A stretch of DNA of 16,379 nucleotides from Christensenella sp. UBA3770 (GTDB taxonomy: Bacteria; Bacillota; Clostridia; Christensenellales; CAG-1252): contig DFFS01000040.1 of the NCBI GenBank assembly GCA_002371075.1, forward strand, positions 1-16,379. Reading direction: 5' to 3'. Shown in pieces: positions 788-16,379 of this stretch (positions within the stretch are counted from its first letter, which is position 1; every line of letters begins with the position of its first letter). The notes under the pieces were generated by a model. It searched no databases. It saw only the letters and a program-made list of their open reading frames with translations, and was not told where the DNA came from. Made by a program: the position numbers and the translations under genes.

Positions 788-791
<4 letters not shown>

Positions 792-1216: not shown

Positions 1217-1229
1217 GGTCGTTTCCCAT

Positions 1230-1262: not shown

Positions 1263-1280
1263 TAAAAAACTCAAAAACCG

Positions 1281-1309: not shown

Positions 1310-1316
1310 GATAACA

Positions 1317-1343: not shown

Positions 1344-1356
1344 TTGGAGGTGTGAT

Positions 1357-1722
1357 ATGAAAAAGATCGTTTCCGACCTTTGCGAAGACGACGTTATCCA
1401 CGTGGGCGTGGTTGAAAAAGTGCGTGCCGCCATCCCCGACGAGGACGTTCTCGTTGACGTGGCGGAGCTTTTTAAGGTGTTTGGCGACAGCACGCGCACC
1501 CGTATTCTTTCGGCGCTTTTCGTGTCGGAGCTTTGCGTTTGCGACATCGCCAGTTTGTTAAATATGACAAAATCCGCCGTTTCCCATCAGCTTCGCATCT
1601 TGCGTCAAACCAAGATCGTAAAAAACCGCAAGCAGGGGAAGGAAGTGTATTATTCGCTTGATGACGAGCATATCTCGCGTATTTATAAAATGGCTCTTGA
1701 ACATTTATCGGAGGAAAAATAG
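1357..1722 (+). CDS. cadC: ArsR/SmtB-family metalloregulatory repressor (CadC-like; Cd/Pb/Zn-sensing type)
   Basis: The RBS GGAGG at 1346-1350 lies 6 nt before the ATG at 1357. The upstream TTG at 1318 (track start) lies inside the operator and has no RBS. The protein has the HTH 'KSAVSHQLRILRQTKIV', the alpha3 metal motif 'ELCVCDIA' (CVC), and an N-terminal Cys in 'DLCEDD', as in alpha3N-site sensors. The stop TAG at 1720-1722 abuts the next ATG. Confidence 0.85.
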   Translation: MKKIVSDLCEDDVIHVGVVEKVRAAIPDEDVLVDVAELFKVFGDSTRTRILSALFVSELCVCDIASLLNMTKSAVSHQLRILRQTKIVKNRKQGKEVYYSLDDEHISRIYKMALEHLSEEK

Positions 1723-1950
1723 ATGAAAAAGGTTTATGAATTAACAGATCTGTGCTGCGCCGCTTGCGCCGCCGAGATCGAGCGTGACGTGAAAAAGATA
1801 GAGGGCGTTGCTTTTTGCAGCGTAAACTTCATTATGCAAAAGATGACCGTCGACTACAAAGACGAGGCGGACGTTCCCTCCGTTTACAAGGCGCTTGTCA
1901 AAGCGGTGCGCCGCGTGGAAGCCGATTGCGAGGTAATCGAGGTAAAGTGA
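1723..1950 (+). CDS. Stand-alone heavy-metal-associated (HMA) domain protein, homologous to the CadA N-terminal metal-binding domain
   Basis: The 75-aa product contains 'LCCAACAAEIERDVKKIEGV', a CxxC metal-binding loop in a ferredoxin-like HMA context. This resembles the CANC motif of CadA N-termini. The ATG directly follows the cadC stop. Confidence 0.8.
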   Translation: MKKVYELTDLCCAACAAEIERDVKKIEGVAFCSVNFIMQKMTVDYKDEADVPSVYKALVKAVRRVEADCEVIEVK

Positions 1951-1951
1951 C

Positions 1952-3835
1952 GTGAAACGCGACAAAAAGCTGTTGATCCGCATCATCGTGGCGTTTGCGG
2001 TGTTTGCCGCCGCCCTGATCCTGTTCAAATTGACGCCGCTACGCAGTTTCGGCGCCGTTGCGGAAGGGTGGAACCTAAGCGATTTCCGTTTCTATTTGTA
2101 CGTTTTGCCGTTTTTGATCGCCTATTTGATCGTCGGATACGACGTCATATACAAAGCGGGCAGAAACCTTGTTTCCGGCAGGCTTCTTGACGAAAACTTT
2201 TTGATGGTGGTGGCGACCTTTGGCGCCGTGGCGCTTTTGGACCTGCCCGAAGCGTGCGGCGTGATGCTGTTTTATCAGATCGGCGAGTTGTTTCAGCGCT
2301 ATGCCGTCGGCAAATCGCGCCGTTCCATTGCCGCGCTGATGAACATTCGTCCCGACGTGGCGCGCGTTTTGCGTGACGGCGAAGAGGTTTTTCTTTCCCC
2401 TGAGGAAGTTGCGGTTGGCGACGTGCTTGTTTTGCGCGCCGGAGAGCGCGTTCCCGTGGACGCCGTCCTTATGGATGGAGCAGGGAGCTTTGACGTGTCT
2501 TCCCTGACGGGTGAGAGCTTGCCTCGTGATGTCGCAGCGGGGGACGAGGTGCTCAGCGGCTCCATAAACCTCGGCGGAGAGATCAAACTGCGCGCGGTAA
2601 AACCCTATGGGGAATCCACCGTGCAAAAGATCCTTGATCTTGTGGAAAACGCCGCCGCCAAAAAGGCGCAGGCGGAGAACTTTATCACAAAATTCGCGCG
2701 CTATTATACGCCCGTCGTCGTTGTCGCGGCGCTCTTGATCGGGCTTGTCCCGCCCCTCTTTTTGGGAAATTGGGGCGGGTGGATCAAAAAGGCGCTGACC
2801 TTCCTTGTGGTCTCCTGTCCTTGCGCGCTTGTCATCTCGGTGCCGCTCTCCTTCTTCGGTGGGATCGGCGGCGCGTCCAAAAAGGGCATTCTTGTCAAAG
2901 GGGGCGCGGCGCTTGAGCGCTTGGCAAAAGCGAACGTCTTTTTGTTTGATAAAACGGGGACCATCACCGAGGGCAAATTTTCCGTCGTGGAGGTGTTTCC
3001 GTCCGAGCGTGCTTCGGAGGTGCTGACGGCGGCAGCCATTGCCGAAAGCGCGTCCAATCACCCGATCGCACGGTCCGTCGTTGCGTTTGCTCCGGCGGTG
3101 GATCACGCGGGTTATACGATTCGGGAAATCGTCGGACGCGGGGTCAAAGCCGTCAAAGAGGGTGACGAGATCCTTGTCGGCAACGCGGCGCTCCTTTCGG
3201 AGGAAGGCGTCGATTTTGAACCTTGTAAGCGGGGCGGCACGACCCTTTACGTGGCGAGAAACGGCGCGTTTATCGGGTGGTTGACGGTTTCCGACACGCC
3301 CAAAGAAAACGCCGCAGAGGTCGTTGCGGCGCTGAAAAAAGAGGGTTGTATGACCGTTATGCTGACGGGCGATCACAGGGGCGCGGCAAAAGAGGTTGCC
3401 GAACGGGTGGGCGTGGATGCTTACGTTGCGGAATTGTTGCCGCAAGATAAGGCGGCGTATATGGAAAAGATCCTTAGGGAGCAGGCGGGAAAGACCGTTT
3501 GCTTTGTCGGCGACGGCATCAACGACGCTCCCGTCCTTGCCATGGCGGACGTGGGCGTTTCTATGGGCGGCATCGGCAGCGACGCTGCGATCGAGGCTTC
3601 CGACGTGGTGTTGATGCGGGATGACCTTGCCTCCATAAAAGAGGGCAGAGGCATCGCCAAAAAGACGATGCGCATCGTGCGCGAAAACATTGCCGTCGCG
3701 CTTGGCGTCAAGGTGGGGGTTCTCCTTTTGACGGCGGTTGGGCTGATGGGGGCTTTTGCCATGTGGCTTGCGGTGTTTGCGGACGTCGGCGTGGCGATGC
3801 TTGCGATCCTAAACGCGATGAGAACGCTTCGCTGA
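1952..3835 (+). CDS. cadA: P1B-type heavy-metal (Cd2+/Zn2+/Pb2+) translocating ATPase lacking an N-terminal HMA domain
   Basis: The TM6 motif is 'SCPCALVIS' (CPC). The phosphorylation site is 'FDKTGTIT' and the HP motif is 'SNHPIA'. The protein also has 'MLTGDH', the hinge 'VGDGINDAP', and 8 predicted TM helices. A GTG start at 1952 is preceded by GAGGTAA, 6 nt upstream. Confidence 0.9.
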   Translation: MKRDKKLLIRIIVAFAVFAAALILFKLTPLRSFGAVAEGWNLSDFRFYLYVLPFLIAYLIVGYDVIYKAGRNLVSGRLLDENFLMVVATFGAVALLDLPEACGVMLFYQIGELFQRYAVGKSRRSIAALMNIRPDVARVLRDGEEVFLSPEEVAVGDVLVLRAGERVPVDAVLMDGAGSFDVSSLTGESLPRDVAAGDEVLSGSINLGGEIKLRAVKPYGESTVQKILDLVENAAAKKAQAENFITKFARYYTPVVVVAALLIGLVPPLFLGNWGGWIKKALTFLVVSCPCALVISVPLSFFGGIGGASKKGILVKGGAALERLAKANVFLFDKTGTITEGKFSVVEVFPSERASEVLTAAAIAESASNHPIARSVVAFAPAVDHAGYTIREIVGRGVKAVKEGDEILVGNAALLSEEGVDFEPCKRGGTTLYVARNGAFIGWLTVSDTPKENAAEVVAALKKEGCMTVMLTGDHRGAAKEVAERVGVDAYVAELLPQDKAAYMEKILREQAGKTVCFVGDGINDAPVLAMADVGVSMGGIGSDAAIEASDVVLMRDDLASIKEGRGIAKKTMRIVRENIAVALGVKVGVLLLTAVGLMGAFAMWLAVFADVGVAMLAILNAMRTLR

Positions 3836-3838
3836 AAA

Positions 3839-3862
3839 AACCGCCGTTCGGGCGGTTTTGTT
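3839..3862. terminator. Probable bidirectional rho-independent terminator between the convergent cadA and lipoprotein genes
   Basis: The stem aaccgcc (3839-3845) pairs with ggcggtt (3851-3857) and is followed by TTTGTTG. On the opposite strand it is preceded by an A-run, so it is usable in both directions. Confidence 0.55.
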
Positions 3863-3899
3863 GTAAAAGTAGATTATTCCACTTGTTTTATAAAAATCT

Positions 3900-5615
3900 T
3901 TATTCTTCGTCTTTGGGTAGGATCAAGCCCTCAAGCTCGATGCCGATCACGTCGATGGTCATGCGGACCTTTTCCGTATCTCCCTCTTTCGTGTAAGTAT
4001 AGCGGATATACGATTCGCCTTTTCCGACGGCGTTGTTGACGTAGATCGCCGTATAGGTCTTATCGCCCGCCGTGACGGTCTCCAGCGTGTAGGTCCCCAC
4101 GCATTCAATGCCGATCACGTCGTCAAATGCGTCGGGGTCGTCAACGATCAGTTGTCCCGTTTGGGCATATCGCGCGAAGATGGCTTGCAGGTGCGGGTTG
4201 TCGTAATCCAACCCGATGATCCTGATCCCATAGTATTCCTCAATGGCTTTGAGCACGCCGGCAAGGTCGGTCTCTTCCACGCCCGGGGCAATGTCGGAGA
4301 AGTAGTAGGACGCAAGCCCGAAAGCAAATTCCGAATTCAGATTAAAACCGCTTTTTTTGACCGTATCTTTCAAGATGCCGGTCACCAGTTCCAACAGCGG
4401 AACGGTCAGCTTGTACGTTCCGTCTTTTTCAAACGTGATGCTCGCTTGTTTTTTGTCGATCGCACCGGTGTACTCATCTCCGAATACGGCAAAGTACGAA
4501 ACGTCAAAACGCTTTGTGACGTCAAAGGTCCTGCCCGATCTGACCGCCTTATAAACGGTGGGAAGGACGCCGTTTGTCCCGTCAAAGTAAGCTTTGCTTA
4601 CTTCGCCAAAGGTTGCGGCGCGCATGATGGCTTTTTTGATGCTTTCTTTGTTTTCAATGTCGCCGTACAGGCGGTTTAACTGGCTGACCTTTTGCTTTTT
4701 GTATTGATACAGCGCGTTGGGAGCGGCAAGCCCGTGCGACGCAAGTTTGTCTTGCAACAGTTCCGCAAGGATGGCGTGGCCTTCCGAGGAGGGGTGCACG
4801 CCGTCTGAGCAAAACAGGCGTTGCCAACGATCGTTGTCTTTTTCGTAGATGCTTTCAAACGCCGAGTACACGTCGATCAGTTCAAAGGGCTTGACGGTGT
4901 TTCCGTCTTCGTCAACGTAGGTATGCTCTTCCGCGTAGTCTATGAGGGTTTGGTTGATCGTGCGGATCAACTTGTCCATAACCGCGTGATATTTTTGGGG
5001 CCCGATACCCTTTGAGGCAAGCACGCTGCGTGCATAAGAGGGAACGAGCGGGCTGTCTTCTCCGGCGGGGTTATACAGCGTTTGCACAAAGATCAGGGCG
5101 TTTGGATTGAGACGCTTGAGGGTCGCAAAGGTGTTTTCAAAGTTTGCTTTCGCCGTCTCCTGACGGGGGGTGATGCGATCGTAAACGTCGTTTGAAAGGT
5201 CGATCATCAGCTGATTGTGGCTGGAGTTCAAAAAGTCGTTGCCGATGTTGGAGATGTGAATGATGTCGGCGGTGGAAATATAGGTGCGCACGAGGTTGAT
5301 ACCGTCGTCCTCTCGCTCGACAAAATGCATCAGGTCTTCCGTCGTATAGGCGGTCACGGCGCGATTGTGAAACGAAAAGTCGTTGATCGTGCCGACAATG
5401 CCGTAGTAGCCGTAGTTTTCGCGCTCCGTCAACGGGCAGGGACCGGCAAGCGCTTCGCCGATGGAGTCGCCGAGGAAAAGGATCTCCGTTTTTTTCTCTG
5501 TCGTAACGGCAGCTGTCTCTTGCGTTTCTTCGCGCTTTTGCACGCAGGCAAAAAGCGCCGTGAACGTCACGACAAGCACAAGCAATATGGCGGTAAGCAA
5601 AAATATCCTTTTCAT
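3900..5615 (-). CDS. Secreted lipoprotein with an N-terminal SGNH/GDSL-family hydrolase (lipase/esterase) domain and a ~250-aa C-terminal domain of unknown function
   Basis: A lipoprotein signal 'MKRIFLLTAILLVLVVTFTALFAC' is present, with lipobox L-F-A-C. The SGNH block I is 'ILFLGDSIGE' and block V is 'CSDGVHPSSEGH', of the DxxH type. The start was chosen at 5615, because the upstream ATG at 5648 lies inside the -10 hexamer of the promoter. Confidence 0.75.
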   Translation of the reverse strand: MKRIFLLTAILLVLVVTFTALFACVQKREETQETAAVTTEKKTEILFLGDSIGEALAGPCPLTERENYGYYGIVGTINDFSFHNRAVTAYTTEDLMHFVEREDDGINLVRTYISTADIIHISNIGNDFLNSSHNQLMIDLSNDVYDRITPRQETAKANFENTFATLKRLNPNALIFVQTLYNPAGEDSPLVPSYARSVLASKGIGPQKYHAVMDKLIRTINQTLIDYAEEHTYVDEDGNTVKPFELIDVYSAFESIYEKDNDRWQRLFCSDGVHPSSEGHAILAELLQDKLASHGLAAPNALYQYKKQKVSQLNRLYGDIENKESIKKAIMRAATFGEVSKAYFDGTNGVLPTVYKAVRSGRTFDVTKRFDVSYFAVFGDEYTGAIDKKQASITFEKDGTYKLTVPLLELVTGILKDTVKKSGFNLNSEFAFGLASYYFSDIAPGVEETDLAGVLKAIEEYYGIRIIGLDYDNPHLQAIFARYAQTGQLIVDDPDAFDDVIGIECVGTYTLETVTAGDKTYTAIYVNNAVGKGESYIRYTYTKEGDTEKVRMTIDVIGIELEGLILPKDEE

Positions 5616-5646
5616 TGTTCTCTCGTCAAATATCTTTGACAACAGC

Positions 5647-5675
5647 ATTATAAAGCATAACGCCTTTTATTGCAA
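5647..5675 (-). promoter_or_regulatory. Sigma-A promoter for the lipoprotein gene (minus strand)
   Basis: Read on the minus strand, the promoter is TTGCAA (5670-5675), a 17-nt spacer, and a perfect TATAAT (5647-5652). It sits ~25 nt upstream of the ATG at 5615. Confidence 0.55.
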
Positions 5676-5864: not shown

Positions 5865-5893
5865 TTGACAAAATTTAACAATTAAGTTAAAAT
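5865..5893 (+). promoter_or_regulatory. Sigma-A promoter for the seven-gene operon, within an AT-rich intergenic region
   Basis: A consensus TTGACA at 5865-5870 is followed by a 17-nt spacer and TAAAAT at 5888-5893, which extends to TAAAATATAT. It lies ~60 nt upstream of the ATG at 5953. The region 5760-5900 is ~25% GC, against ~57% for the window. Confidence 0.5.
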
Positions 5894-5952: not shown

Positions 5953-8649
5953 ATGAGCCAAAACGCAGCGGATCACATCAGTTTTTCCATCATAAACGAC
6001 AAGACGGTCGGCGCTCTCACGATCCACGTTACAAGTGTTCCCGATTATAAGGTTTTCGATACCGAAGACGACGTTGCCGCCGCCGGCGCCATCAAGCAGG
6101 TTTTTACCGCCATCATCAACGAGTTTTCACATTTTGCGTCGCAATCCTCCGTTTCTGCGGAGCTGATGTTGTCGTGCAAATCCGCCGAGAATCAGTTGTT
6201 CCGTTCCTTTGTGGATATCCACGTCGTTTTGCGCGCCGTGGACGTTGATTACGCCGCGTGTCTCAACAACCTGATCCATTGCGGTACGTTGTTTGTGGAG
6301 ACGCTTGGCAACTCCAAAATCGTTTGTGAATATTGCGATTTCAAAGAGTACGCGCAGATCGTTTCCGATTTGAACATGGACGAGGTTTTGACCATTCGTC
6401 GCCCCGATGAATACATCGGTTTCCAAAACGCCTTTTTCCCGTTTTGTTACAACTACGACGCCGTGGAACCCAACGATAAGGACATCGACGCCATCATCAA
6501 CGCGATGATCGCAGAGAAGGATTGTGCCGTGGTCTTATCCATCATTCCCACTTCCTTTACCTATGCGGAGCAAAGCTTCCTTTCCGTCAATTACAATTCG
6601 TTAAACAGGCTTTGCACCGGCATCATGATGCCGCGCATGGGCATGTACAAGGAGGCACGCGCCGAGATCCCGATGCGTACCTACAAAAAGTATTCCGCTT
6701 TTTGCGCCGAGCCCGTTTGTTTGTTTAACATGCAGGTGTGCGGCGATCGCTTGGGGGCAAGAAACATCGCGTCCAAATTCCTGTCCGTTTTGACGGATGA
6801 AAAGGCGCAGTTCTCCACCCGCTTTGAAATTTGCGAAACCAATCATTTCGCCGATCTGTTAAGAAGCATTTACGCTTCGCCCTGGGCGGTTTCGGACGCG
6901 ATCATGCAGTACAACCGCGTCGCATCGCCGTATCCCCAAATGCAAAACGCCTGTTGGCGCTTGGCGTATCTGTATTTGCCCGCCGAGATCGCGCAGGTCT
7001 TCCGCGTTCCGATCGGCACCAAAAAGATCACGGACGGCATCGATATCCATTACATCAACAAGCGTAACAAAAAGTTTGGTCAAGACGTCATCAATTCCGC
7101 GGCGTTCACGATCGGTAAATTGCAAAACGTGATCGGCGATCAGTCGTATATCGGCGTCGGCAAAAAGGATCTGACCAAGCATATGCTCGTCGTGGGTACG
7201 CCGGGTTCCGGTAAATCCACCTTTTTGGTGGGGCTCATGGACCGGTTGTGGAAGCAGGGCATCCCCTTTTTGGTCATTGAACCCGCCAAGACGGAGTATC
7301 GCGGGCTGATCGATTCCATTCCCGATCTGCAGGTGTTCTCTCCCGGCAACAACGAGGTCTCGCCTTACGTGATCAATCCGTTCGTTCCCCCCAAGGGCGT
7401 TTCGGTGGAAAAACACAAATCCATCGTCAAAGCGGCGTTTTCCGCCGCGTTTGAGATGTGGACGCCGCTTGATCAACTTTTTGACGAGACGCTCAACATT
7501 TGTTACAGCGAGCAGGGCTGGCTGGACAGCGACGTCGTGGAAGAGGGAGCGGATTGCTTCTCGCTGATCGATTTTGTAAAGACCTATCGCGAGGTGGTTG
7601 CTTCCAAGGGTTACAGCGGGGAGTATAAAAAGCAGATCGAAGCCGCCGGCGTACTGCGCCTCAACGGTTTGTTGGAGCAAAACATCAACATCTTCGACAC
7701 GCGTTATTCCGTGCCCATCGAGGACATCTTAAAGGCGCCCACCGTCATTGAGCTTTCCAACGTAAAGGACATCAAGCAAAAGTCCTTTATCATCGCTTAT
7801 CTTTTGAACAACATTTACGCTTACGTCGAGGCAAACAACAGCAACGACGGCAATTTGAAAAACGTGATCCTTTTGGAGGAAGCGCACGTCCTTTTGGACG
7901 CCGGCTCCGTGGTGGGGGACGAGGGTCCCAACGCAAACGCCGCCGCCGTCAAGTTGCTTACCGATATGCTTGCGGAGATCCGCTCGCGCGGCGTGGGCAT
8001 CGTCGTGGCGGATCAGTCGCCAAAAAAGGTCACCTCGCCCGTGATCTCCAACACCAACGTCAAAGTGATGTTCCGTTTGGTGGAAAAGGCGGATAAGGAG
8101 ATCGTAAAGAACTCCACCGGCATGACCGACTTGCAGGAGGAGAGGCTCTCGCGCTTGTCCACCGGCGAGGCGCTTTTGTATTTTGACAAATTGGACGAAG
8201 TGGAAGAGATCCGTATGGACGACTACCGCTTGTCGGCGGGCATCGCCACCGATCTCAGAGACGCCGACGTCAAGGCGCGCATCACCTATTGGCAAAAGCA
8301 CGCCTATCTTTTGAAGCCGTTCCCCGATTGCGATTGCATCGGCTCCTGCAGCGGCGGTTGCGACCCGTTGAAGAGAAACAGGGCGCGCATCATTGCGGAT
8401 AGGATCTTCCGCAAAAATTACCCCAAAAACTTCCACGATTTTGAAACGTTTAAAGCCTTCTATCGGCAGATGAACCTTGCCGTTAAGGAGGAGACCCTTG
8501 CCGTGTTTAAGGGCGCTGTGGACCCCGCCGACGTGTTGGATTGCGCAAAGGTGCATTTCCTCAGAAAGGTAAACTATTTCACCAACATCGAGGTCAACTT
8601 CACACTCAGAAAAAACACGTACGCACGTGCGAAGAAACCCTTGCAATAA
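5953..8649 (+). CDS. HerA/FtsK-clade (DUF87-like) P-loop ATPase, with a ~340-aa uncharacterised N-terminal domain and a Cys-rich C-terminal tail
   Basis: Walker A is 'MLVVGTPGSGKST' (K421). 'VIEPAKTEY' is HerA 'DPxGEY'-like. Walker B is 'VILLEEAHVLL', the EEAH type, at 639-645. 'GVGIVVADQSPKKV...NVKVMFRL..KAD' corresponds to the HerA 'TQRP' arginine-finger region. The pre-ATPase segment 'IGTKKITDGIDIH...IGKLQNVIGDQSYIGVGKKDL' resembles the HerA N-terminal barrel. The C-terminus carries 'CDCIGSCSGGCD'. Confidence 0.8.
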   Translation: MSQNAADHISFSIINDKTVGALTIHVTSVPDYKVFDTEDDVAAAGAIKQVFTAIINEFSHFASQSSVSAELMLSCKSAENQLFRSFVDIHVVLRAVDVDYAACLNNLIHCGTLFVETLGNSKIVCEYCDFKEYAQIVSDLNMDEVLTIRRPDEYIGFQNAFFPFCYNYDAVEPNDKDIDAIINAMIAEKDCAVVLSIIPTSFTYAEQSFLSVNYNSLNRLCTGIMMPRMGMYKEARAEIPMRTYKKYSAFCAEPVCLFNMQVCGDRLGARNIASKFLSVLTDEKAQFSTRFEICETNHFADLLRSIYASPWAVSDAIMQYNRVASPYPQMQNACWRLAYLYLPAEIAQVFRVPIGTKKITDGIDIHYINKRNKKFGQDVINSAAFTIGKLQNVIGDQSYIGVGKKDLTKHMLVVGTPGSGKSTFLVGLMDRLWKQGIPFLVIEPAKTEYRGLIDSIPDLQVFSPGNNEVSPYVINPFVPPKGVSVEKHKSIVKAAFSAAFEMWTPLDQLFDETLNICYSEQGWLDSDVVEEGADCFSLIDFVKTYREVVASKGYSGEYKKQIEAAGVLRLNGLLEQNINIFDTRYSVPIEDILKAPTVIELSNVKDIKQKSFIIAYLLNNIYAYVEANNSNDGNLKNVILLEEAHVLLDAGSVVGDEGPNANAAAVKLLTDMLAEIRSRGVGIVVADQSPKKVTSPVISNTNVKVMFRLVEKADKEIVKNSTGMTDLQEERLSRLSTGEALLYFDKLDEVEEIRMDDYRLSAGIATDLRDADVKARITYWQKHAYLLKPFPDCDCIGSCSGGCDPLKRNRARIIADRIFRKNYPKNFHDFETFKAFYRQMNLAVKEETLAVFKGAVDPADVLDCAKVHFLRKVNYFTNIEVNFTLRKNTYARAKKPLQ

Positions 8650-8681: not shown

Positions 8682-10349
8682 ATGGCAGATGATTTCAATG
8701 ATTCGTTTGACGGCAGTTCGGTAGAGGAGTTTTCTTCGGATTCCTATACGGATTTCTCAAGTGAAGAGACCTACGAACAATCGTCGGACGCATTCATCAG
8801 CGATTATGACGACACGATTTCCGCCACGGACTATGAGACAACCGAGGATGACAGTGGGTTGGAGGAAAACGACTATGATGACTCTTATAACGATTACGTG
8901 TCGGAAGAGGAGCAAGAGGAAGAGTATATCGTAGAGAATGACGATTTTGAAGAGACCGTAACGGAGCCTTCGGCTGACCCCGAAGACGCTTTTATTTCCG
9001 ATCTCGATGAAGTGATCCAAGAGGAGGACGAAGGTTTATCCGATGAGGAACAAAGCGAACTCTACTTGGAGGAGGATGAGGAAGAACCGCAAGAGGTTGA
9101 ACTGCAAGAAGAAGAGAGCCAAGAAGAGTATTTGGCGGACGAGGACGACGAGCAGATCGCGGAGTCGGAAGAAACCGATCCCGATGCTTCCGAGTTTGTT
9201 GCCGACACGGATAATATCCAGCCGCAATACGGCACCCTCGCAGAGTATTTGAACGGGCACAACTACGGGCAGGAGGATTATGACGTTTATTCACAAGATC
9301 CCGAGTGGAGAAGATTGTATTCAATTGAGTACCCCGATGCGGAATTGCCCCCGCTTACGTCGGAAAGTATTGACAACATTCTTGCGCCGTACGAAGGGAA
9401 AACGTATGATTCCTTGGGTGAGTACTTAAGTGATCACAACTTCGGACAGGCAGATTATGAGATCTATTCCCAAGACCCCGAATGGCGCAGATTGTATTAT
9501 GAGCAATATCCCGATGCCACGCTTCCGCCCCTCAGTCAGGAAAGGATCGATGACATTCTCGCCCCGTACGAGGGAAAAACGTACGATACGGTGGAGGACT
9601 ACCTCAACGACCACAACTTCGGGCAAGGAGATTACGATATCTATTCAAGGGATCCCGAATGGCAACGCCTTACAGGAAACGATGCTCCGAGGATTTTAGA
9701 TGATTTCGAACAAGGGTATACGGCAGAGCATCCCGATTTTAAAGATTATTATCAATCGGGGCGCTTTTATGATCAAGGTGCTAATGAATATGGTTTTAAC
9801 GGAACGTGCGGACCAACTTCTCAAGCCAACGCAGTTAATTATTTGTTAGGAACCAATGAATACACGGAGAACAAGGTCTTAAAAATTGCCGTTGAAAACA
9901 ATTTATGTACCTTAACCGGGCCTTCCGGTGATCAAGGAGGAACAACAACGCAACAGTTTATGGACCTGTATGATCGGGTCAATGAGCAGACCGGTGGTCA
10001 GCTTAATGTTGAGTTGCACGATTTTGACAAGGCACTAAGCATTGAAGAAATGGCTTCGAAAATCGAAGAGGGAAGCGTGTTGAACGTAGCTGTTGACAGT
10101 AGCGCCTTGTGGGATAAAGAACGTGAATTCAGTCCATTCGGATACAATGAAAGTTTTTATACCGATCATTGGATAACGGTGACCGGAGTCGATAGGGATG
10201 AATCAGGTGAAATCCAAGGTTTTAAAATTATTGATTCCGGCGGTGGAGTCGACTATGTTGACGTAGATAAATATGATAGAATGTGTTTTGGCACCGATCA
10301 GCACAGAGTCAACGATCCAACGATGATCGTTGTTTCCAAAAAAGGTTAA
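8682..10349 (+). CDS. Tripartite protein: polyacidic low-complexity N-terminus, three 59-aa tandem repeats, and a C-terminal papain-like cysteine peptidase domain (C39-like)
   Basis: The RBS AAGGAGGAAAG lies before the ATG at 8682. Residues 1-180 are >40% D/E. The repeat unit is 'Y(G/D)xLxEYLxxHN(Y/F)GQxDY(D/E)(V/I)YSQDPEWRRLY...YPDAxLPPL(T/S)xExIDxILAPYEGKT', present three times. The C-terminal domain has 'NGTCGPTSQANAVNYLLG' (Cys376), then 'TDHWITVTGVD' (His496), then 'FKIIDSGGG'. This is the Cys...His...Asp order and spacing of papain-fold peptidases. Confidence 0.75.
   Translation: MADDFNDSFDGSSVEEFSSDSYTDFSSEETYEQSSDAFISDYDDTISATDYETTEDDSGLEENDYDDSYNDYVSEEEQEEEYIVENDDFEETVTEPSADPEDAFISDLDEVIQEEDEGLSDEEQSELYLEEDEEEPQEVELQEEESQEEYLADEDDEQIAESEETDPDASEFVADTDNIQPQYGTLAEYLNGHNYGQEDYDVYSQDPEWRRLYSIEYPDAELPPLTSESIDNILAPYEGKTYDSLGEYLSDHNFGQADYEIYSQDPEWRRLYYEQYPDATLPPLSQERIDDILAPYEGKTYDTVEDYLNDHNFGQGDYDIYSRDPEWQRLTGNDAPRILDDFEQGYTAEHPDFKDYYQSGRFYDQGANEYGFNGTCGPTSQANAVNYLLGTNEYTENKVLKIAVENNLCTLTGPSGDQGGTTTQQFMDLYDRVNEQTGGQLNVELHDFDKALSIEEMASKIEEGSVLNVAVDSSALWDKEREFSPFGYNESFYTDHWITVTGVDRDESGEIQGFKIIDSGGGVDYVDVDKYDRMCFGTDQHRVNDPTMIVVSKKG
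9228..9716 (+). repeat. In-frame tandem repeat with a 177-nt period, ~2.75 copies (9228-9404, 9405-9581, 9582-~9716), inside the peptidase gene
   Basis: The unit boundaries fall exactly 177 nt apart (9228, 9405, 9582). Protein identity between copies is ~65-70%, but the nucleotide sequences differ at many synonymous positions. This points to an old, selected repeat rather than a recent duplication. Confidence 0.8.
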
Positions 10350-10361
10350 GGAGGATTAAAA

Positions 10362-10835
10362 ATGAAAGCATTATCAGCTGTAATGAAGGATTTGGATTTT
10401 AGTTTGTTTGGAGGAGCAAAGGTCCCCCATGGGTTATCTCATCCGATTGTCAGATATGAAAACGGGGAGTTCTATTTTGCTGTTTTCGCTTTTGGATTGT
10501 CTGCCGAAAAGGTCAGAACCAATCAGCTTGGGAAACCTTCTAAATGGGCTTTGGCGGATTTGGAATCAGGGGAAATTAAGTTCACTTTTTCTTGTATGGA
10601 AAAGGATTTTTCACCTGCTTCGGAAGATATCCTTTATGATATGAGCACATTTGCGGGAGATCGTCCGACTCAAAAAGATGTGGAAAAGGTTTACGAACAA
10701 TTTGAGGCGATCAGAAGCACATACGTAAGCAATAAAGATGCTGTTTTGCCGCTAATAAAAGAATATATGGAAGCTTTATCCAAAGTCGTGCCTACAGCAT
10801 ATTTTAAATTTTATAAAGATCTTTCGAACATTTAA
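10362..10835 (+). CDS. Hypothetical 157-aa cytoplasmic protein encoded immediately downstream of the peptidase gene; immunity or inhibitor candidate
   Basis: The RBS GGAGGA lies 8 nt before the ATG. The protein has no TM segment and no recognisable motifs. It shares the low-GC composition (~40-45%) of the upstream gene. Confidence 0.7.
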   Translation: MKALSAVMKDLDFSLFGGAKVPHGLSHPIVRYENGEFYFAVFAFGLSAEKVRTNQLGKPSKWALADLESGEIKFTFSCMEKDFSPASEDILYDMSTFAGDRPTQKDVEKVYEQFEAIRSTYVSNKDAVLPLIKEYMEALSKVVPTAYFKFYKDLSNI

Positions 10836-10855
10836 CGAAAAGGGAGGATAGAAAA

Positions 10856-12079
10856 ATGCCAATTGTAGAAACCATTAAATATGAAGGACCGCAAGACGCC
10901 CTTGTCTGGAGAAATTCAGGCAAGGAATACACCATCGGAAAAGATGGCAGCATTAACATGGGATCGCAGCTGATCGTCGACGAGTTTTACGAGGCGATCC
11001 TGTTTGCCAACGGCAACGCGCTTGACTTGTTTAAGCCCGGGCGCCACACCTTGATCACGCAAAATATTCCGATGCTCAAGGAACAGTTTGAAAGGCTGAC
11101 CACCTCTACGCCGTTCCCCGTCAAAGTGTACTTTATCAACAAAGTGCATCAGTTGGAACTCAAGTGGGGAACGCAGGGACCCATCATGGTGGACGATCCC
11201 GTTTACAGCATTTTCCTGCACGTCGGTTGCTGCGGAACGATGGCAATCAGGATCTCCGATTCGAGAAAGTTCCTTTTGAAGTTTGTCGGAAACAAAGAAT
11301 CCTACACAAACAACGATCTCGTCGGTAATTTGAGAGGCATCATTTCCTCTAAGGTCAAGGAGTATATCTCCAAGATCATGATCGAGGGCAGGGTCAGCTT
11401 CTTTGTAATGAATGCAAAGATCGCCGACATAGCAGAGCTGGTGAAACAACAGTTGCAACCCATTTTCGATTCGTACGGCTTGGAGATCCAGTTTTTTAAC
11501 ATCGAGACCATCGACGTTCCCAAGGAAGATTATCAAATGTTGCAAGACGCCAAGAATAACAGGGCGTATTACGACATCAACGCCGAAAAGTGGGAGAAAG
11601 AAAAGATGTTTGAAGTTCTCAGAACCGCTGCCGGCAACGAGGGCATGGCAGGCAACATGATGGGTGCCGGCATGGGACTCGGCATGGGCATCGGCTTCGG
11701 CGCTCCGATGGGACAGGCGATGGGCAACATCACCAATTCCGTCTTCGGATCCGCGCAAATGGGCGGCGGCGCAGGCGCATCGCCTCGTCAAAATGAGGCG
11801 CCCAAAAACATATACAATCAAAACAGCGGTTTGGGTATGAACGTCAATGACTTTTTGAATAAAAACATGGCAAACGCCGCTCCCGCCGCCCCCGCAGGCG
11901 CAGCAGGGCAACCCGCCCCCGCGTTCTGCCCGCAGTGCGGCGCGCCGTTGATGCCCGGCGCAAGGTTCTGCTCAACCTGCGGCGCAAAAATCGAACAGAA
12001 AAACGTGTGTCCCGCTTGCGGCGCGGAAGTTCCGCCCAACGCAATGTTCTGCGGCATGTGCGGACAAAAGCTTAAGTAA
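10856..12079 (+). CDS. SPFH/band-7 (stomatin/prohibitin-like) domain protein with a Gly/Met-rich linker and a C-terminal double zinc ribbon (COG4260/YdjI-like)
   Basis: The RBS AAGGGAGGA is present. The N-terminal ~250 aa has an alternating beta/alpha SPFH-like pattern ('LVWRNSGKEYTIGKDGSI..GSQLIVDEFYEAILFANGNALDLFKPGRHTL'), consistent with the YdjI-type SPFH family. A low-complexity linker 'GNEGMAGNMMGAGMGLGMGIGFGAPMGQAMGN' follows. Two zinc-ribbon motifs follow, 'FCPQCGAPLMPGARFCSTCGA' and 'VCPACGAEVPPNAMFCGMCGQ'. Confidence 0.8.
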   Translation: MPIVETIKYEGPQDALVWRNSGKEYTIGKDGSINMGSQLIVDEFYEAILFANGNALDLFKPGRHTLITQNIPMLKEQFERLTTSTPFPVKVYFINKVHQLELKWGTQGPIMVDDPVYSIFLHVGCCGTMAIRISDSRKFLLKFVGNKESYTNNDLVGNLRGIISSKVKEYISKIMIEGRVSFFVMNAKIADIAELVKQQLQPIFDSYGLEIQFFNIETIDVPKEDYQMLQDAKNNRAYYDINAEKWEKEKMFEVLRTAAGNEGMAGNMMGAGMGLGMGIGFGAPMGQAMGNITNSVFGSAQMGGGAGASPRQNEAPKNIYNQNSGLGMNVNDFLNKNMANAAPAAPAGAAGQPAPAFCPQCGAPLMPGARFCSTCGAKIEQKNVCPACGAEVPPNAMFCGMCGQKLK

Positions 12080-12094
12080 AAGGAGGGTTTGACA

Positions 12095-12835
12095 ATGAAT
12101 GAAAATAAACAAATCGGTAAAAAAGCGTTCTCAGCCGGATTGATCATCTTTACCATCATTATCGCGGTTTTGAATTTGATCATCTTTACGATCTTTAAGC
12201 CCCTGAAACTGGAAACCAATCACTTAAAATTGATCTTCTGGTTCTCATACGGCTTTATGATGTTGGCGTACGTCTTGCAGGTGGTTTCCATCTTCACCGG
12301 CAGATATGAAAACGGGGTGGAATCCGTCTTCTTCAGCATTCCGATGTACAAGGTGGCCATTTTCTACTTTGCCGTTGCCGCTGTGCTCTCCTTGCTCTTT
12401 ATGATACTGGTCAGCTTTGGCGTCGCGGTGCCGTTTATGCTGATGTTCATTTTGGAGATCATCGTCTTGGCGGTGTTTGCCATCGCGTTCGTGCTTAGTT
12501 ACACGCACAAAAACGTCGTCCTTGACATTGACAAGAACATCAAAGCAAACGTCTTTAAGATCCGCACGCTCGTGACCGACGTGGAGGTGCTTGCCGAGGC
12601 GGTGAACGACAACGCCGCGCTCAAAGCAAAGCTCGCCCGTCTGGCGGAGGATATCCGTTATTCCGATCCGATGACCAACGATTCCGTCAAGGATCTTGAC
12701 CTTCAAATGAGGGATCTTGTCGCCGAGCTCGAGCTTGTCGTCAGCGAAAAGGACTACGCGCAAGCGGAGACCCTTATCAGACAAGCGACGTTGACGATGT
12801 CAAAGAGGAACAAGCGTTTGGCTGACGGAAAATAG
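12095..12835 (+). CDS. Integral membrane protein (~4 TM helices) with a C-terminal cytoplasmic coiled-coil region
   Basis: The RBS AAGGAGGG at 12080-12087 lies 7 nt before the ATG at 12095. The track's TTG at 12089 is less likely. The hydrophobic segments are 'GLIIFTIIIAVLNLIIFTIF', 'LIFWFSYGFMMLAYVLQVVSIF', 'VAIFYFAVAAVLSLLFMILVSFGV' and 'FMLMFILEIIVLAVFAIAFVL'. The tail 'EVLAEAVNDNAALKAKLARLAEDIRY...LQMRDLVAELELVV' is helical with heptad periodicity. Confidence 0.7.
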   Translation: MNENKQIGKKAFSAGLIIFTIIIAVLNLIIFTIFKPLKLETNHLKLIFWFSYGFMMLAYVLQVVSIFTGRYENGVESVFFSIPMYKVAIFYFAVAAVLSLLFMILVSFGVAVPFMLMFILEIIVLAVFAIAFVLSYTHKNVVLDIDKNIKANVFKIRTLVTDVEVLAEAVNDNAALKAKLARLAEDIRYSDPMTNDSVKDLDLQMRDLVAELELVVSEKDYAQAETLIRQATLTMSKRNKRLADGK

Positions 12836-12848
12836 GAGTTAGACAACT

Positions 12849-14822
12849 ATGGCAGAAAGATTTACCAGCCAAAGATGTCAGGACTGCCAGGGCGGTCTTG
12901 AATACAACAAGGCGGGGAAATATTGGGAGTGCCCGTATTGCGGCAAGATCTACGAGAGGGAACTACGTTTCAACAAGGTCCAAATCGACGGTCTTGCCGG
13001 CATCAACGACCTGGTGCGTTCCACCCTTTCAAAGGTGGTCAAGCTGGATTTTTCGGGTGCGGAAAGGGACTATTTGGAGTGTGAAAAGATCAACCACTTA
13101 AGCGTCGGCACCGCGATCGCGGGTATGGCGCTAAGCCTCTTCAAGGCGTTTACCACAAAGGACAGACAGGCGGAGATCGCCAAGCTAAATAGCTTGGCGC
13201 AAAAGTTTTCAAAGGACTTTCCCACGATAGAAGACGAGGAGGAGATCCTGTACGAATATATTGCGTCGCAAGACATCTACGCCATGCTCGTCGTGCTTTA
13301 CAGTACGATCAAACAGACAAAGCGCTTGGAGCAAATGTATTTGTTGCTTGATTGCAAAGAAGTGTACGAGCAAAGCATCTCCAAATTTCTCCTAAACGTG
13401 CTTTTGAAGGATGGGAAGGTGGAGGACGCGGACGTCATCATCGGCAATCTGTCCGAGGCAAACAGCCGCTTTGGCATCATGTCGGTGCTCAAGGACTATC
13501 CTGGCAACGACAAAAAGGTCCAACATATCCAAATCCTTTTGAAAAGGTACAAATCCGAGTTCAGCCTTGCTAAAACCTTCGAAGATTATTTTGACGCCAC
13601 CGAGGATCCTTCCGACGTGGTGATCGGCATCTTCCTCGCGGCAATCGAAAAAGGGGTCCAATTTAACGTGGACAGCACGTTGGAAATGGTGCTTGAGAAC
13701 TGCACGGACGAGGACGCCGCAAACAGAGTTTTCGGCGCGCTTTCGCACGTGCGCTTTTCCGATCAGGCGGCGGAGACGATCGTCAACTGGTGCCTTTTGG
13801 AAGCGGAGAGCGCGGAAATCTGCGCGATCGGCATAAAATCGTTGTTTGAAAGCAACACGATCTTTGAGCTCACCTACGATATGTGCGTTCTGCTGTTCGA
13901 TTCCGATCAAGACCCCGATCTGATCATCGGAAAGTTTAAGGTGCTTTTAAGCACGTTGCGCGCTCCGAGTAGGTGCTTGGACAGGTTGATCTCATACGTT
14001 CTCCTTGAAACGGACGGCGAAACGAGAGGAGAGCTGTTTGACGAACTGTTCTCTCGCGTAAACAGCGTGTCGCTCAGCGTTCTTAACGATTACGTTTTGA
14101 AAGTGTACGACGATGGGGAAGAGAAACGGGACATCTTGCAAAAGGTCCTGGAAAAGTCCAAGACCTCTTTCGACTACTCGCTTTTGTCAAATTATCTGAG
14201 GACGGATATCGATGAGTCGGAGACCCGCGAAGGGGTGATCGAAACTTTGCTTGAAGCAAAGTTGATCCCCGATTGCGAGTCGTATACATATTATCTTGTC
14301 AACGAAGACGAGTTACATTCCGACGAAATGTTGGATCTTTTGGATCAAAAGAACATTCGTCCCTCGTCTTCCGCCTTGGATCAGTATTTCCGAAACGTTG
14401 ACCCCGACGAGTTTAACCCCAAGATCGCTTACCTTGCCACAAAAGCCTCCTATCGCTTGAGCGCGGAGGCGTATGCGCGCTATATCCTTGAAATCAGCGA
14501 ACCGCAAAACCGCAAAGCGCACAGCGCGGTCGTGTATTTGGAACAAACGGACGTTTCGGCGCTGCGTAACGCGCAGTTTTCCGCAACGGTCGCAGGCAAA
14601 AAGGTCACCGGCAATCTTGCGGAGATATATATTTTCGTCACCGGCGACGAAGCTTTCGTCGTGCAGGAAGTTCTCGGCTGCTTGAAAAAGCAAAAAATCA
14701 GGATCGACGAGACCATCGAAGTGGAGGGGGAGAAAAAGAGCGTGAAGATGAAGAAATTCATCGAGGAAAATCCCACCGCCGTCCCCGCTTCCATCAAGAG
14801 CGCCGTCGTTCAATTTTTATAA
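12849..14822 (+). CDS. 657-aa protein with an N-terminal Cys4 zinc ribbon followed by a large acidic alpha-helical domain of unknown function
   Basis: The RBS TAGGAG overlaps the upstream stop. 'CQDCQGGLEYNKAGKYWECPYCGKIY' has the form CxxC-x15-CxxC. The rest is predicted to be helical and D/E-rich, with no enzymatic motifs. Confidence 0.75.
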   Translation: MAERFTSQRCQDCQGGLEYNKAGKYWECPYCGKIYERELRFNKVQIDGLAGINDLVRSTLSKVVKLDFSGAERDYLECEKINHLSVGTAIAGMALSLFKAFTTKDRQAEIAKLNSLAQKFSKDFPTIEDEEEILYEYIASQDIYAMLVVLYSTIKQTKRLEQMYLLLDCKEVYEQSISKFLLNVLLKDGKVEDADVIIGNLSEANSRFGIMSVLKDYPGNDKKVQHIQILLKRYKSEFSLAKTFEDYFDATEDPSDVVIGIFLAAIEKGVQFNVDSTLEMVLENCTDEDAANRVFGALSHVRFSDQAAETIVNWCLLEAESAEICAIGIKSLFESNTIFELTYDMCVLLFDSDQDPDLIIGKFKVLLSTLRAPSRCLDRLISYVLLETDGETRGELFDELFSRVNSVSLSVLNDYVLKVYDDGEEKRDILQKVLEKSKTSFDYSLLSNYLRTDIDESETREGVIETLLEAKLIPDCESYTYYLVNEDELHSDEMLDLLDQKNIRPSSSALDQYFRNVDPDEFNPKIAYLATKASYRLSAEAYARYILEISEPQNRKAHSAVVYLEQTDVSALRNAQFSATVAGKKVTGNLAEIYIFVTGDEAFVVQEVLGCLKKQKIRIDETIEVEGEKKSVKMKKFIEENPTAVPASIKSAVVQFL

Positions 14823-14845: not shown

Positions 14846-16379
14846 ATGACTCAGGAAGAATATGATCGTTATATGGCCGAGCAAGAACGGTTGATCAATG
14901 AGTACAACGCGTTGGTCGCAAGAAAAAGCCGGTTGATCGATGAGTACAACATGCTTGTCGAAGAACTGACTTATGCGATCGAAGCGACCGTCAGCGTGAT
15001 CAATCAGACGAACAAGGTCAAAAACCACATCGTTCCGAGGCTTACGGAGTCGGAAGCGGCGGTAACGGTAGTCAACGGCATGGTCAAAGACGTCCAGCGC
15101 GAAATAGAGCAACTGGCGGAAAAGTATTTCTTGATGAAAAACATTTCCACGGCGTCCAAGAAGATGATGCAGCTCAACAACGAGTATCAACAAAAATTCG
15201 GGCTGTACAACATGCTGCGCAGGGTCACGCTCGGTTACGTTGTCGGTGTTGACAGCAACATCATCAGCAACGAGTCGTTGCGCAAAACCGTGGAGAAAAA
15301 CTACCTGCAAAACGCCGATTACTGGATCTCGCACTGCATTATGGCAACGATGCTGTGGGTCAGCGACGAAAAGGAGGCGGCGTACCGCGCGCTCAACAAA
15401 GCGCTCAGCATCGACCGCAAAAAGGCATCGCTGTTTTTCTTACTTTTGAACTTGCGTTTCGGCCGCAACGAGGAGGCGGGAAGGTGGTTTGAATTTTACA
15501 TTCAGGACATCGACGTCAACAACGTCGGCGACGAGATCATCATCTTGTTCCAAGCTTATCTTTACAACGTTTGCGGCAACGAACCGGAGATCAAGGGACG
15601 TATCCGTGAAAAGTTGGACGGTTTGCTTGCGGAAATTCGCCAAAACACGCGCGATTATGACGAGGACATCAAGGTGTCGCTGTTAAAACACATTTCCGCT
15701 TACGTGCACAAGACCAGAGAAGAGTTTGAGAAGATGGAGGATTTCTGCAAGGATTACAAGACGATGATCCAAGCGTTGGAAAGCGCCGAAAAGAACGGTG
15801 ATTTCGCCAAATTCTACAACGAGCTCTACGTCAGCGACGACAATGCGCCCAAGGATCTTTTGACCCGTATAGAAAACGTGTTGTACGACCTTATCAACAC
15901 CTATGACGAGGTGGAAAAGATCATCATCCGCGATATGAATTACAACGAGATGATCCTCAAGGCAAACGGCGACATTGCGGCGGCGCAAAAGATGTATCAA
16001 GCCAAATACAACGAGGGCAAGCCCCAGACGCTGGGCGAACTGATGATCAGGCTTTCGCTTCCGACGGTGGGCGACGACGTGGATATCCGCGTCAAAAAGT
16101 TTGCCATTTCCTTCTTGGTGGAGAGCATCAAAAAAGCCTTTGAAGCTTATCAACAGGAATATCGCAAAACCGCAGTTGACGTCCACGAGGTGGTCATCGA
16201 TTCCTTTACCATCAAGGTGGACGAGAAAGAGCCGCGCAAAGCCGCCGAAGACCTTAAGCAAACGTACAAGAAAAACAAAAATAAGCTTGTCAACAAGGAT
16301 AGGGGCGTAAAAGCCTTTACGGGGCTCAGTGTCTTCTTCTGCATCGCGTTTGCCATCATGGTCGCGCTGGTGTGCGTGC
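14846..16379 (+). CDS. Large coiled-coil protein (>511 aa, 3'-truncated by window end) with a hydrophobic TM segment at the window edge
   Basis: A strong RBS AAAGGAGGGAGG lies 6 nt before the ATG at 14846. My manual translation of 14846-16379 found no in-frame stop. It begins 'MTQEEYDRYMAEQERLINEYNALVARKSRLIDEYNMLVEEL' and ends 'GLSVFFCIAFAIMVALVCV'. It is absent from the supplied ORF track because no stop codon falls in the window. The two minus-strand track ORFs here are antisense artefacts. Confidence 0.7.
   Translation, partial: MTQEEYDRYMAEQERLINEYNALVARKSRLIDEYNMLVEELTYAIEATVSVINQTNKVKNHIVPRLTESEAAVTVVNGMVKDVQREIEQLAEKYFLMKNISTASKKMMQLNNEYQQKFGLYNMLRRVTLGYVVGVDSNIISNESLRKTVEKNYLQNADYWISHCIMATMLWVSDEKEAAYRALNKALSIDRKKASLFFLLLNLRFGRNEEAGRWFEFYIQDIDVNNVGDEIIILFQAYLYNVCGNEPEIKGRIREKLDGLLAEIRQNTRDYDEDIKVSLLKHISAYVHKTREEFEKMEDFCKDYKTMIQALESAEKNGDFAKFYNELYVSDDNAPKDLLTRIENVLYDLINTYDEVEKIIIRDMNYNEMILKANGDIAAAQKMYQAKYNEGKPQTLGELMIRLSLPTVGDDVDIRVKKFAISFLVESIKKAFEAYQQEYRKTAVDVHEVVIDSFTIKVDEKEPRKAAEDLKQTYKKNKNKLVNKDRGVKAFTGLSVFFCIAFAIMVALVCV

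Follow-up and report, generated by a model that had tools for sequence, protein, structure and literature searches.

A cytosolic SPFH/zinc-ribbon protein and its operon neighbours as a possible membrane platform of a toxin-deploying conflict system in gut Clostridia

Comparison of the SPFH triad with the Bacillus YdjGHI module

The SPFH protein YdjI (SamI) of Bacillus subtilis consists of an SPFH domain, a low-complexity linker and a C-terminal zinc ribbon, has no membrane anchor of its own, depends on YdjG and YdjH for its membrane recruitment, and is required for PspA to be localised (PMC8581546; bioRxiv 10.64898/2026.02.06.704340). YdjH is a membrane protein with a TPM_phosphatase domain, and YdjG carries two zinc ribbons, an NTF2-like domain (YpeB-related) and a transmembrane (TM) segment (PMC11237479). 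In another line of work, the polymorphic toxin catalogue of Zhang et al. 2012 (PMC3482391) describes HerA/FtsK-family ATPases as the motors of the type VII (T7SS) and type IV (T4SS) secretion systems. Here we describe a 16,379-nt stretch of Christensenella sp. UBA3770 (contig DFFS01000040.1; hereafter the window), in which the genes for a cytosolic SPFH protein, a four-TM (4-TM) protein and a zinc-ribbon/alpha-solenoid protein share an operon with a HerA-type ATPase and a polymorphic-toxin-like protein, and we compare it with its relatives (loci coded L001-L024). A preliminary description of this DNA had taken the three genes for a divergent PspA-type membrane-repair module. We tentatively prefer to read them as the membrane-platform part of a multi-gene, toxin-deploying and probably exporting conflict system of gut Clostridia.

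The open reading frames of the triad were found at exactly the positions listed in Table 1, within a run of + strand genes that continues past the window end. Because the intergenic gaps in this run are only 9-32 nt, the genes are probably co-transcribed. Terminator-like matches within the run are short stems of 5-9 pairs, which we would not take as real terminators, and the sole promoter signal seen upstream of the HerA gene in a sequence scan was a sigma-70-like consensus. A 96-kb metagenomic contig (L001) that encodes the exact 407-amino-acid (aa) SPFH protein extends the operon to at least 12 genes, encoding the HerA-type ATPase, the toxin, an immunity-like protein, the SPFH, 4-TM and zinc-ribbon/solenoid proteins, three paralogous coiled-coil (CC)/TM proteins, a Cdc48-like AAA ATPase and a pair of small proteins. 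We divided these into three sub-modules: A, the CC proteins with a 52-aa protein (s52), a ~167-aa protein (p167) and the AAA ATPase; B, the SPFH, 4-TM and zinc-ribbon/solenoid proteins; and C, the HerA ATPase, the toxin and its immunity protein.

Table 1. Positions of features in the window and in the related loci.
Feature	Position	Strand	Comment
Promoter-like site TTGACA-17-TAAAAT	5865..5893	+	11/12 consensus matches, sigma-70-like; consensus match only; AT-rich gap 5' of the first gene
HerA/FtsK-superfamily P-loop ATPase, 898 aa	5953..8649	+	Pfam DUF87 E 7e-10; putative motor of sub-module C
Polymorphic-toxin-like protein, 555 aa	8682..10349	+	Acidic N-terminus, 59-aa repeats, papain-like C-terminus
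Immunity-like protein, 157 aa, predicted cytoplasmic	10362..10835	+	Present only where the toxin has the papain-like domain
Cytosolic SPFH protein, 407 aa	10856..12079	+	Band_7_1 31-232, linker ~260-355, double zinc ribbon 357-405
4-TM membrane protein, 248 aa (246 aa from the ATG at 12095)	12089..12835	+	By topology prediction
Zinc-ribbon/alpha-solenoid protein, 657 aa	12849..14822	+	Ribbon 4-35, helical repeats ~43-570
First of three paralogous CC/TPR-like/TM-hairpin proteins	14846..16379	+	Gene cut by the window end; 602 aa in full
Stand-alone A cassettes	L018 (MK448457.1) 9674-14257; L019 1106-5629; L020 7468-12003; L021 7926-12399		
Upstream trio of the compact type	L012 8129-9905; equivalent positions in L013, L023, L024		

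The 407-aa protein has the three-part architecture of YdjI that the preliminary description had assigned to it. Pfam Band_7_1 (PF13421) matched its SPFH domain at E 3.1e-38 (131.9 bits, cut-off 24), DZR (PF12773) matched residues 358-403 at E 1.3e-12 (48.1 bits, cut-off 27.3), Zn_Ribbon_1 matched the protein twice, and a low-complexity linker rich in Gly and Met joins the SPFH and ribbon domains. The eight ribbon cysteines lie within residues 358-402 as four CxxC motifs. As in YdjI, topology prediction revealed no hydrophobic segment or intrinsic membrane anchor; a PDB sequence search with the protein returned no matches. Judged from its sequence, the protein is a YdjI/SamI-type member of the known Band_7_1 family, and L002, L004-L011 and L022 each have an orthologue (40-72% identity) at the corresponding place. 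The two neighbours named in the preliminary description, a 4-TM protein and a 657-aa protein that starts with a zinc ribbon, are also real and always follow the SPFH gene. Since the SPFH gene, like that of YdjI, lies beside genes for a membrane protein and a zinc-ribbon protein, recruitment to the membrane by these partners is plausible.

The four hydrophobic segments of the 248-aa protein all fall within residues 9-144, and its C-terminal tail of ~105 residues, read as helical from the sequence alone, was placed in the cytoplasm. No family was found for it in Pfam (one spurious match at E <= 0.1), NCBIfam or PADLOC. Its gene stands directly 3' of the SPFH gene in all examined loci that have one (L002, L004-L013, L022-L024), and by analogy with the Bacillus partners we presume that it is the membrane anchor of the SPFH protein. 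The 657-aa protein, encoded third after the SPFH and 4-TM genes in all expanded loci, contains a CxxC-12-CxxC ribbon at residues 10-32 and a conserved motif, LRFNKVQIDGLAGINDLVRSTLSK, at residues 39-62. Its AlphaFold2 model (mean predicted local distance difference test, pLDDT, 88.1) shows a three-stranded ribbon (residues 4-27), then helical repeats that span ~500 residues, and finally a small alpha/beta domain, and neither topology prediction nor the model gave a TM segment or an NTF2 fold. It is presumed to be an adaptor or scaffold. The family is tiny: a word-indexed search gave 28 clusters, 4 of 185,579 species genomes have a member, and a set of 1.84 billion proteins yielded 154 representatives.

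In contrast to the SPFH protein, the partners did not bear out the proposed kinship. The 4-TM protein has no match to the TPM domain of YdjH, a protein known here by its published description. The 657-aa protein, previously suggested to be an enlarged YdjG, is soluble and has one zinc ribbon and a ~500-aa alpha-solenoid in place of the second ribbon, NTF2-like domain and TM segment of YdjG. In addition, the gene order is reversed, with the SPFH gene first, and the surrounding operon encodes a toxin and ATPases. Where a ~220-aa PspA might have been expected, the gene from 14846 encodes a long CC protein, as had been noticed before. A PspA/ESCRT-III identity for the CC proteins was rejected: no operon protein matched PspA_IM30 or Snf7, and profile searches against PDB sequences returned coiled-coil noise only. 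By the refuting condition that the preliminary description had set, homology of the neighbours to the Psp module is refuted on these domain features, and a likeness remains at the level of architecture, a cytosolic SPFH/zinc-ribbon protein beside a membrane protein and a zinc-ribbon protein.

One could still imagine a repair function, in which the SPFH protein and its partners recruit an ESCRT-III-like CC protein to damaged membrane and the AAA ATPase remodels the assembly as Vps4 does. Consistent with this possibility are the Pfam family and three-part architecture shared with YdjI/SamI, the nature of the two partners, the long helical hairpin (~2 x 65 residues) with which each of the three CC paralogues begins, the classical AAA ATPase in the operon, and the retention of SPFH, partners, CC and AAA genes without a toxin in Roseburia hominis. 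However, besides the missing PspA_IM30, Snf7, TPM and YdjG features, a repair function leaves the toxin cassettes, the TIR fusions and the carriage on mobile elements described below unexplained, and these features point to a conflict system rather than envelope repair. We consider envelope repair very improbable.

The HerA/toxin cassette and a possible export machine

On sequence criteria, the gene after that of the HerA ATPase is a polymorphic toxin with a downstream immunity gene, the two being exchanged as a cassette. Residues 1-180 of the toxin contain 43% Asp+Glu and not a single Lys or Arg. Residues 182-338 (window 9225-9695) hold ~2.7 copies of a 59-aa repeat with a YSQDPEWRRL motif (pattern Y..HN[YF]G..D[YF]..YSQDPEWRRL...PD..LPP), and residues ~345-555 are papain-like, with putative Cys376, His496 and Asp518 (Pfam Peptidase_C39_2, a weak match at E 0.011); the peptidase context reported for the triad in the preliminary description held up, as did the HerA context. 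The repeat recurs in the toxins of L006 and Bengtsoniella (L012), belongs to no Pfam family and exists at the protein level only, no DNA-level tandem repeats being present in the toxin gene. A PDB sequence search with the C-terminal domain gave no matches. The toxin has no signal peptide, TM segment or Pfam N-terminal domain, and no recognised trafficking signal (Sec, LXG/WXG, PAAR).

Across the orthologous loci, the acidic N-terminus of the toxin is constant and the C-terminal domain differs. The papain-like domain is common to the window and L011, whereas the other loci carry an LHH HNH-type nuclease (L002, E 9e-26), Gln_amidase, the glutamine deamidase also called 'papain fold toxin 1' (L004-L007), ADPrib_exo_Tox, an ADP-ribosyltransferase exoenzyme (L013, E 5e-26), or TNT plus Gln_amidase (L023 and L024). 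The small gene 3' of the toxin gene changes with it. In L011, a distant locus, the same toxin domain is followed by a 157-aa protein that shows 35% identity (E 2e-42) to its 157-aa counterpart in the window; with other toxin domains this gene is replaced by unrelated genes for proteins of 47-81 aa, and behind the Gln_amidase toxins this is another conserved protein, 73-81 aa long (121 aa in L007). The small gene co-varies with the toxin domain, and both features that define polymorphic toxins, a variable C-terminus and a cognate immunity gene, are present. The GC content drops to 0.37-0.44 over ~9650-10850, which covers the toxin C-terminus and the 157-aa gene, from ~0.50 on either side, and this fits horizontal exchange of the toxin/immunity cassette. 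Two loci encode a second acidic protein, whose gene separates the toxin/immunity pair from the SPFH gene in L005 (4908-6443) and lies upstream of the toxin in L007 (1-861); the L005 protein (511 aa) contains an N-terminal hydrophobic segment and is D/S-rich at its C-terminus ('SFDSGSDGG').

The 898-aa ATPase has a single P-loop domain, with the Walker A sequence GTPGSGKST at residues 415-423, and gave partial matches to CedD/HerA in NCBIfam and HerA/mad8 in PADLOC; its N-terminal ~390 aa have no family match. It has at least 1989 relatives of ~893 aa. In PHROGs, only the ATPases of the system matched. Near its C-terminus the HerA-type protein has a cysteine cluster, CDCIGSCSGGC (residues 793-803, window 8329-8361). 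The orthologues inspected (L002, L004, L005, L006) retain the first and last two cysteines of this cluster, which may be a metal site. If it is counted together with the SPFH and solenoid zinc ribbons, Cys4 motifs are unusually abundant in the system.

A toxin without a signal, swapped toxin domains, a co-varying small gene and an adjacent HerA/FtsK-family ATPase all favour export, and they lead us to the following model. The 4-TM protein would anchor an oligomeric SPFH scaffold at the inner face of the membrane, by analogy with YdjG/YdjH-YdjI and HflK/C-FtsH, and the zinc-ribbon/solenoid protein would be an adaptor that docks other machines on this platform. Docking may be mediated by the HerA cysteine cluster and by zinc ribbons, namely those of the SPFH protein, the solenoid protein and a TPR protein of the compact type of locus (see below). 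Sub-module C would supply the weapon, with the cognate immunity protein protecting the producer from the toxin. A HerA-type hexamer would recognise and thread the polyanionic, Lys/Arg-free tail and so push the toxin into the membrane, or across it, where the SPFH platform lies. Sub-module A would contribute membrane-embedded partners and an unfoldase, and the Cdc48-like AAA ATPase could strip off the immunity protein, unfold cargo or recycle the assembly. We hold this model to be the likeliest of those considered, at slightly less than even odds.

In its most specific form, this model describes a new Gram-positive export machine, or a broader membrane conflict machine, in which a HerA hexamer threads a DNA-like polyanionic leader at an SPFH site with the help of a Cdc48-like unfoldase and a trio of CC/TM-hairpin proteins, and in which the CC/AAA cassette, carried by itself on phage satellites and plasmids of several phyla (see below), is a recruited, independent and uncatalogued immune or exclusion module; we regard this form as possible but rather doubtful. 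HerA/FtsK relatives pump DNA and, in T7SS, proteins, and the combination of an acidic leader with a HerA ATPase suggests how a family of DNA pumps could have become a protein pump. If the export model is correct, gut Clostridia (Oscillospiraceae, Lachnospiraceae and uncultured relatives) possess a toxin-delivery apparatus that has no described counterpart and that bears on competition among dominant gut anaerobes. It would also give the widespread cytosolic Band_7_1 (YdjI-type) SPFH proteins their first concrete cellular job outside Bacillus, as docking platforms for ATP-driven machines. Cultured carriers exist in Bengtsoniella intestinalis (CP133584, compact type), the Oscillospiraceae isolate 21-37, Roseburia hominis and, for plasmids, Komagataeibacter nataicola.

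One precedent for such a machine is the type VIIb system with its LXG toxins and the ATPase EssC. Both occur in Gram-positive hosts, both place a HerA/FtsK-superfamily ATPase beside signal-less polymorphic toxins and immunity genes, and both operons include small accessory proteins and membrane components. However, EssC has three FtsK domains, whereas the ATPase here has one HerA-like P-loop domain and matched the EssC model at only 11 bits; no protein of the operon matched WXG100, LXG, YukD or EssB in Pfam, and no EssA, EssB or EsaA homologues were found. Conversely, T7SS has no counterpart of the SPFH protein, the Cdc48-like AAA ATPase or the CC/TM paralogues, and the toxin N-terminus here consists of an acidic tail and 59-aa repeats. 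HflK/C-FtsH and other SPFH enclosures resemble the locus in that genes for membrane proteins and a classical-clade AAA ATPase accompany that of an SPFH scaffold, but the SPFH protein here lacks a TM anchor, the AAA ATPase lacks a protease domain and TM segments, and the two are linked by their operon only.

Defence systems of the SIR2-HerA, DUF4297-HerA and Gao_Iet kinds likewise combine HerA-superfamily and classical AAA ATPases, and share TIR variants, mobile carriage and effector variability with the loci studied here; the differences are that PADLOC matched partial ATPase domains, that SIR2, DUF4297 and IetS are missing here, and that the effectors come with immunity genes. The swapped LHH, Gln_amidase, ADP-ribosyltransferase and TNT domains with an immunity gene downstream agree with the part of the polymorphic toxin catalogue cited above (Zhang et al. 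2012, PMC3482391), in which a term search found no trafficking mode that uses SPFH proteins or a HerA ATPase of this type. The system shares single parts with type VIIb secretion, HflK/C-FtsH, HerA/Iet defence and the toxin catalogue but fails the defining features of each. No published account of the gene set was found in the literature searched, coverage of which was incomplete, and an earlier description elsewhere is possible. While a polymorphic-toxin/conflict system is a known type, its apparatus here appears to be new with respect to that literature, and that the whole represents a new kind of immune or export machine is a substantial possibility.

Recombination of the sub-modules and the case for intracellular immunity

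Most loci with enough flanking DNA (L002, L004-L008, L022) keep one gene order: HerA (~900 aa), the variable cassette, SPFH-DZR, 4-TM, zinc-ribbon/solenoid, two CC genes, the ~52-aa and ~165-aa proteins, the AAA ATPase and a third CC gene. The exceptions are the upstream part of L008, the Roseburia loci, L011 and a TIR variant, L016. The window contains A, B and C; L011 contains all three, with C relocated after the solenoid gene; and the cluster of Roseburia hominis contains A and B with no HerA or toxin gene. In L008, the contig end cuts the downstream side, the SPFH gene is preceded by a stomatin-like SPFH gene, and no HerA or toxin gene lies within 7.7 kb 5' of the SPFH gene. Hosts of the system were metagenome-assembled genomes (MAGs) of uncultured Clostridia and Bacilli from gut and rumen, with distant versions in Oscillospiraceae and Ruminococcaceae MAGs and in R. 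hominis.

A compact type, found in Bengtsoniella intestinalis and many Oscillospiraceae contigs, consists of HerA, toxin, small gene, a Band_7_1-SHOCT gene and a 4-TM gene, without the AAA and CC genes; its 4-TM protein is 21% identical to the 248-aa protein (E 1e-9 to 1e-10). The HerA gene of this type is always preceded by genes for a 197-aa zinc-ribbon/TPR protein, a ~210-aa protein without a family and a 145-161-aa YidD-domain protein, YidD being a membrane-insertion efficiency factor. We considered and rejected homology between the 197-aa protein and the 657-aa solenoid protein (hhalign probability 8%, with the zinc ribbon alone aligning). The sub-modules A, B and C recombine. Because C is relocated in L011, absent from R. 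hominis and, in the compact type, accompanied by just the SPFH and 4-TM genes, B is the common partner, and the SPFH and 4-TM pair is what C and A both associate with.

This pattern bears on a further explanation, namely that the locus serves membrane protein quality control or exclusion, with the Cdc48-like AAA ATPase extracting or unfolding membrane proteins presented by the TPR/TM-hairpin adaptors within an SPFH enclosure and the HerA/toxin genes being passengers. An SPFH protein together with an AAA ATPase is a recurrent theme, HflK/C-FtsH being the example cited (bioRxiv 10.64898/2026.02.06.704340), the AAA protein here is of the Cdc48/VAT/Msp1 type, and A+B occurs without C as A occurs alone. 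Nevertheless, HerA and the toxin are repeatedly and specifically paired with SPFH and 4-TM even where AAA and CC genes are lacking, which makes a passenger role unlikely, and Pfam found no protease domain in the operon. We think this explanation improbable.

Sub-module A begins with the CC gene at the window end and continues in L001 with genes for a 542-aa paralogue, the acidic 52-aa protein, the ~167-aa protein, a 502-aa AAA ATPase and a 575-aa third paralogue; the paralogues are related to each other at E 1e-12 to 1e-46. The 502-aa protein is predicted to be a classical Cdc48/VAT-type AAA ATPase (Pfam AAA E 1.5e-30; VAT/Cdc48/p97 match E 2e-46) and has neither a protease domain nor TM segments. 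The 602-aa protein was modelled from 48 aligned sequences (pLDDT 83.5) through P0029, which shares 97% identity with window 14846-16378. In the model, the long helical hairpin at the N-terminus leads into a TPR/Sel1-like helical domain and a beta-hairpin, after which come a two-helix TM hairpin (residues 487-543) and, at the C-terminus, a further helix. The long helical hairpin and the hydrophobic hairpin loosely recall ClyA-family toxins; the best Foldseek matches of the model, none of them significant, included the ClyA-family alpha-pore-forming toxins MakA (E 0.09), AhlB, PaxB and YaxA, and we did not rely on them.

This cassette also occurs alone, in the form of a CC/TPR/TM-hairpin protein of ~570 aa, proteins of ~61 and ~185 aa and a Cdc48-like AAA ATPase of ~515 aa, in some cases preceded by a ~160-aa protein. 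We found it on Komagataeibacter and Comamonas plasmids and on a 2.1-Mb replicon of Fusobacterium vincentii that is recorded as a plasmid, and the accessory end of Streptococcus satellite phage Javan368 encodes a CC protein, a 154-aa protein and an AAA ATPase. In these stand-alone cassettes, PADLOC recognised the AAA domain only (IetA), and the cassette, consisting of CC, small, ~160-aa and AAA genes, is a separate candidate for an uncatalogued defence or exclusion system.

Variants of the solenoid protein are relevant here as well. In ~10 of the 154 family representatives (among them P0269, P0324, P0342, P0350 and P0365), a TIR_2 domain (E 1e-11 to 6e-16), along with TPR, is inserted between the zinc ribbon and the solenoid. 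One such variant (L016 956-3808) follows a divergently transcribed helix-turn-helix gene and directly precedes an orthologue of the 602-aa CC protein, with no SPFH or 4-TM gene 5' of it in that locus. The solenoid gene is split into 292-aa and 372-aa reading frames in the complete R. hominis genome CP159990 (L009 7887-9889) and is intact (667 aa) in Logan contig L010 (2583-4586), whose downstream CC gene is identical to that of L009; a frameshift, pseudogene formation or misassembly could account for the split.

The main rival to export is abortive-infection (anti-phage) defence, in which a membrane assembly of CC and SPFH proteins would sense infection through membrane perturbation or a phage protein, and the ATPases would free an intracellular effector that halts the infected cell, either the acidic toxin released from an antitoxin-like partner or, in other variants, the TIR NADase fused to the solenoid. 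The TIR domains in close solenoid homologues and the A cassette alone on a Streptococcus phage satellite and proteobacterial plasmids are features met more typically in intracellular anti-phage immunity than in export, and so count both for this rival and against the reading that we prefer. Other points on its side are the compact HerA/toxin/SPFH/4-TM clusters of L023 and L024, which lie in mobilisable elements between integrase and relaxase/MobC genes and near a 1526-aa NACHT protein and a 3044-aa MutS_I/SNF2 protein, the recurrence of HerA and classical AAA ATPases in known defence systems, and the swapping of effectors and shuffling of sub-modules, which are typical of such systems.

Export faces further difficulties of its own. 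Its principal weakness is that, by topology prediction and models, no operon component has a sizeable extracytoplasmic domain and no conserved element crosses the cell wall. Moreover, R. hominis keeps A and B without HerA or toxin, and A and B must therefore have a function independent of the toxin; L002 has no obvious immunity gene beside its LHH nuclease toxin; and physical contacts among the SPFH, 4-TM and solenoid proteins are hypothetical.

On the other hand, a long shared N-terminal region resembling a trafficking domain, in combination with dedicated immunity genes that vary in step with the C-terminal toxin domains, is the general signature of exported polymorphic toxins and not of abortive-infection effectors, and both are found here. 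In addition, PADLOC v2 detected no complete known anti-phage system, giving partial matches for the 898-aa ATPase (HerA/mad8) and the AAA domain (IetA/TRIP13) and none for nine other proteins. Finally, the expanded loci, the window included, lie among housekeeping genes and not in defence islands. We consider abortive infection unlikely, though it is the strongest competitor of toxin export.

Genes flanking the operon

Positions 15-5648 of the window, on the 5' side of the operon, contain no mobile-element or defence-island genes. Small WXG100-like proteins 5' of HerA were considered and dismissed as chance reading frames, the 97-aa frames in three loci being mutually unrelated and that of the window overlapping a lipase gene. 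The flank encodes unrelated housekeeping functions, namely a cysteine-synthase-type PALP enzyme that the window start truncates, two regulators (Rrf2 and ArsR), an HMA protein and a P-type metal ATPase, as well as a GDSL lipase on the minus strand.

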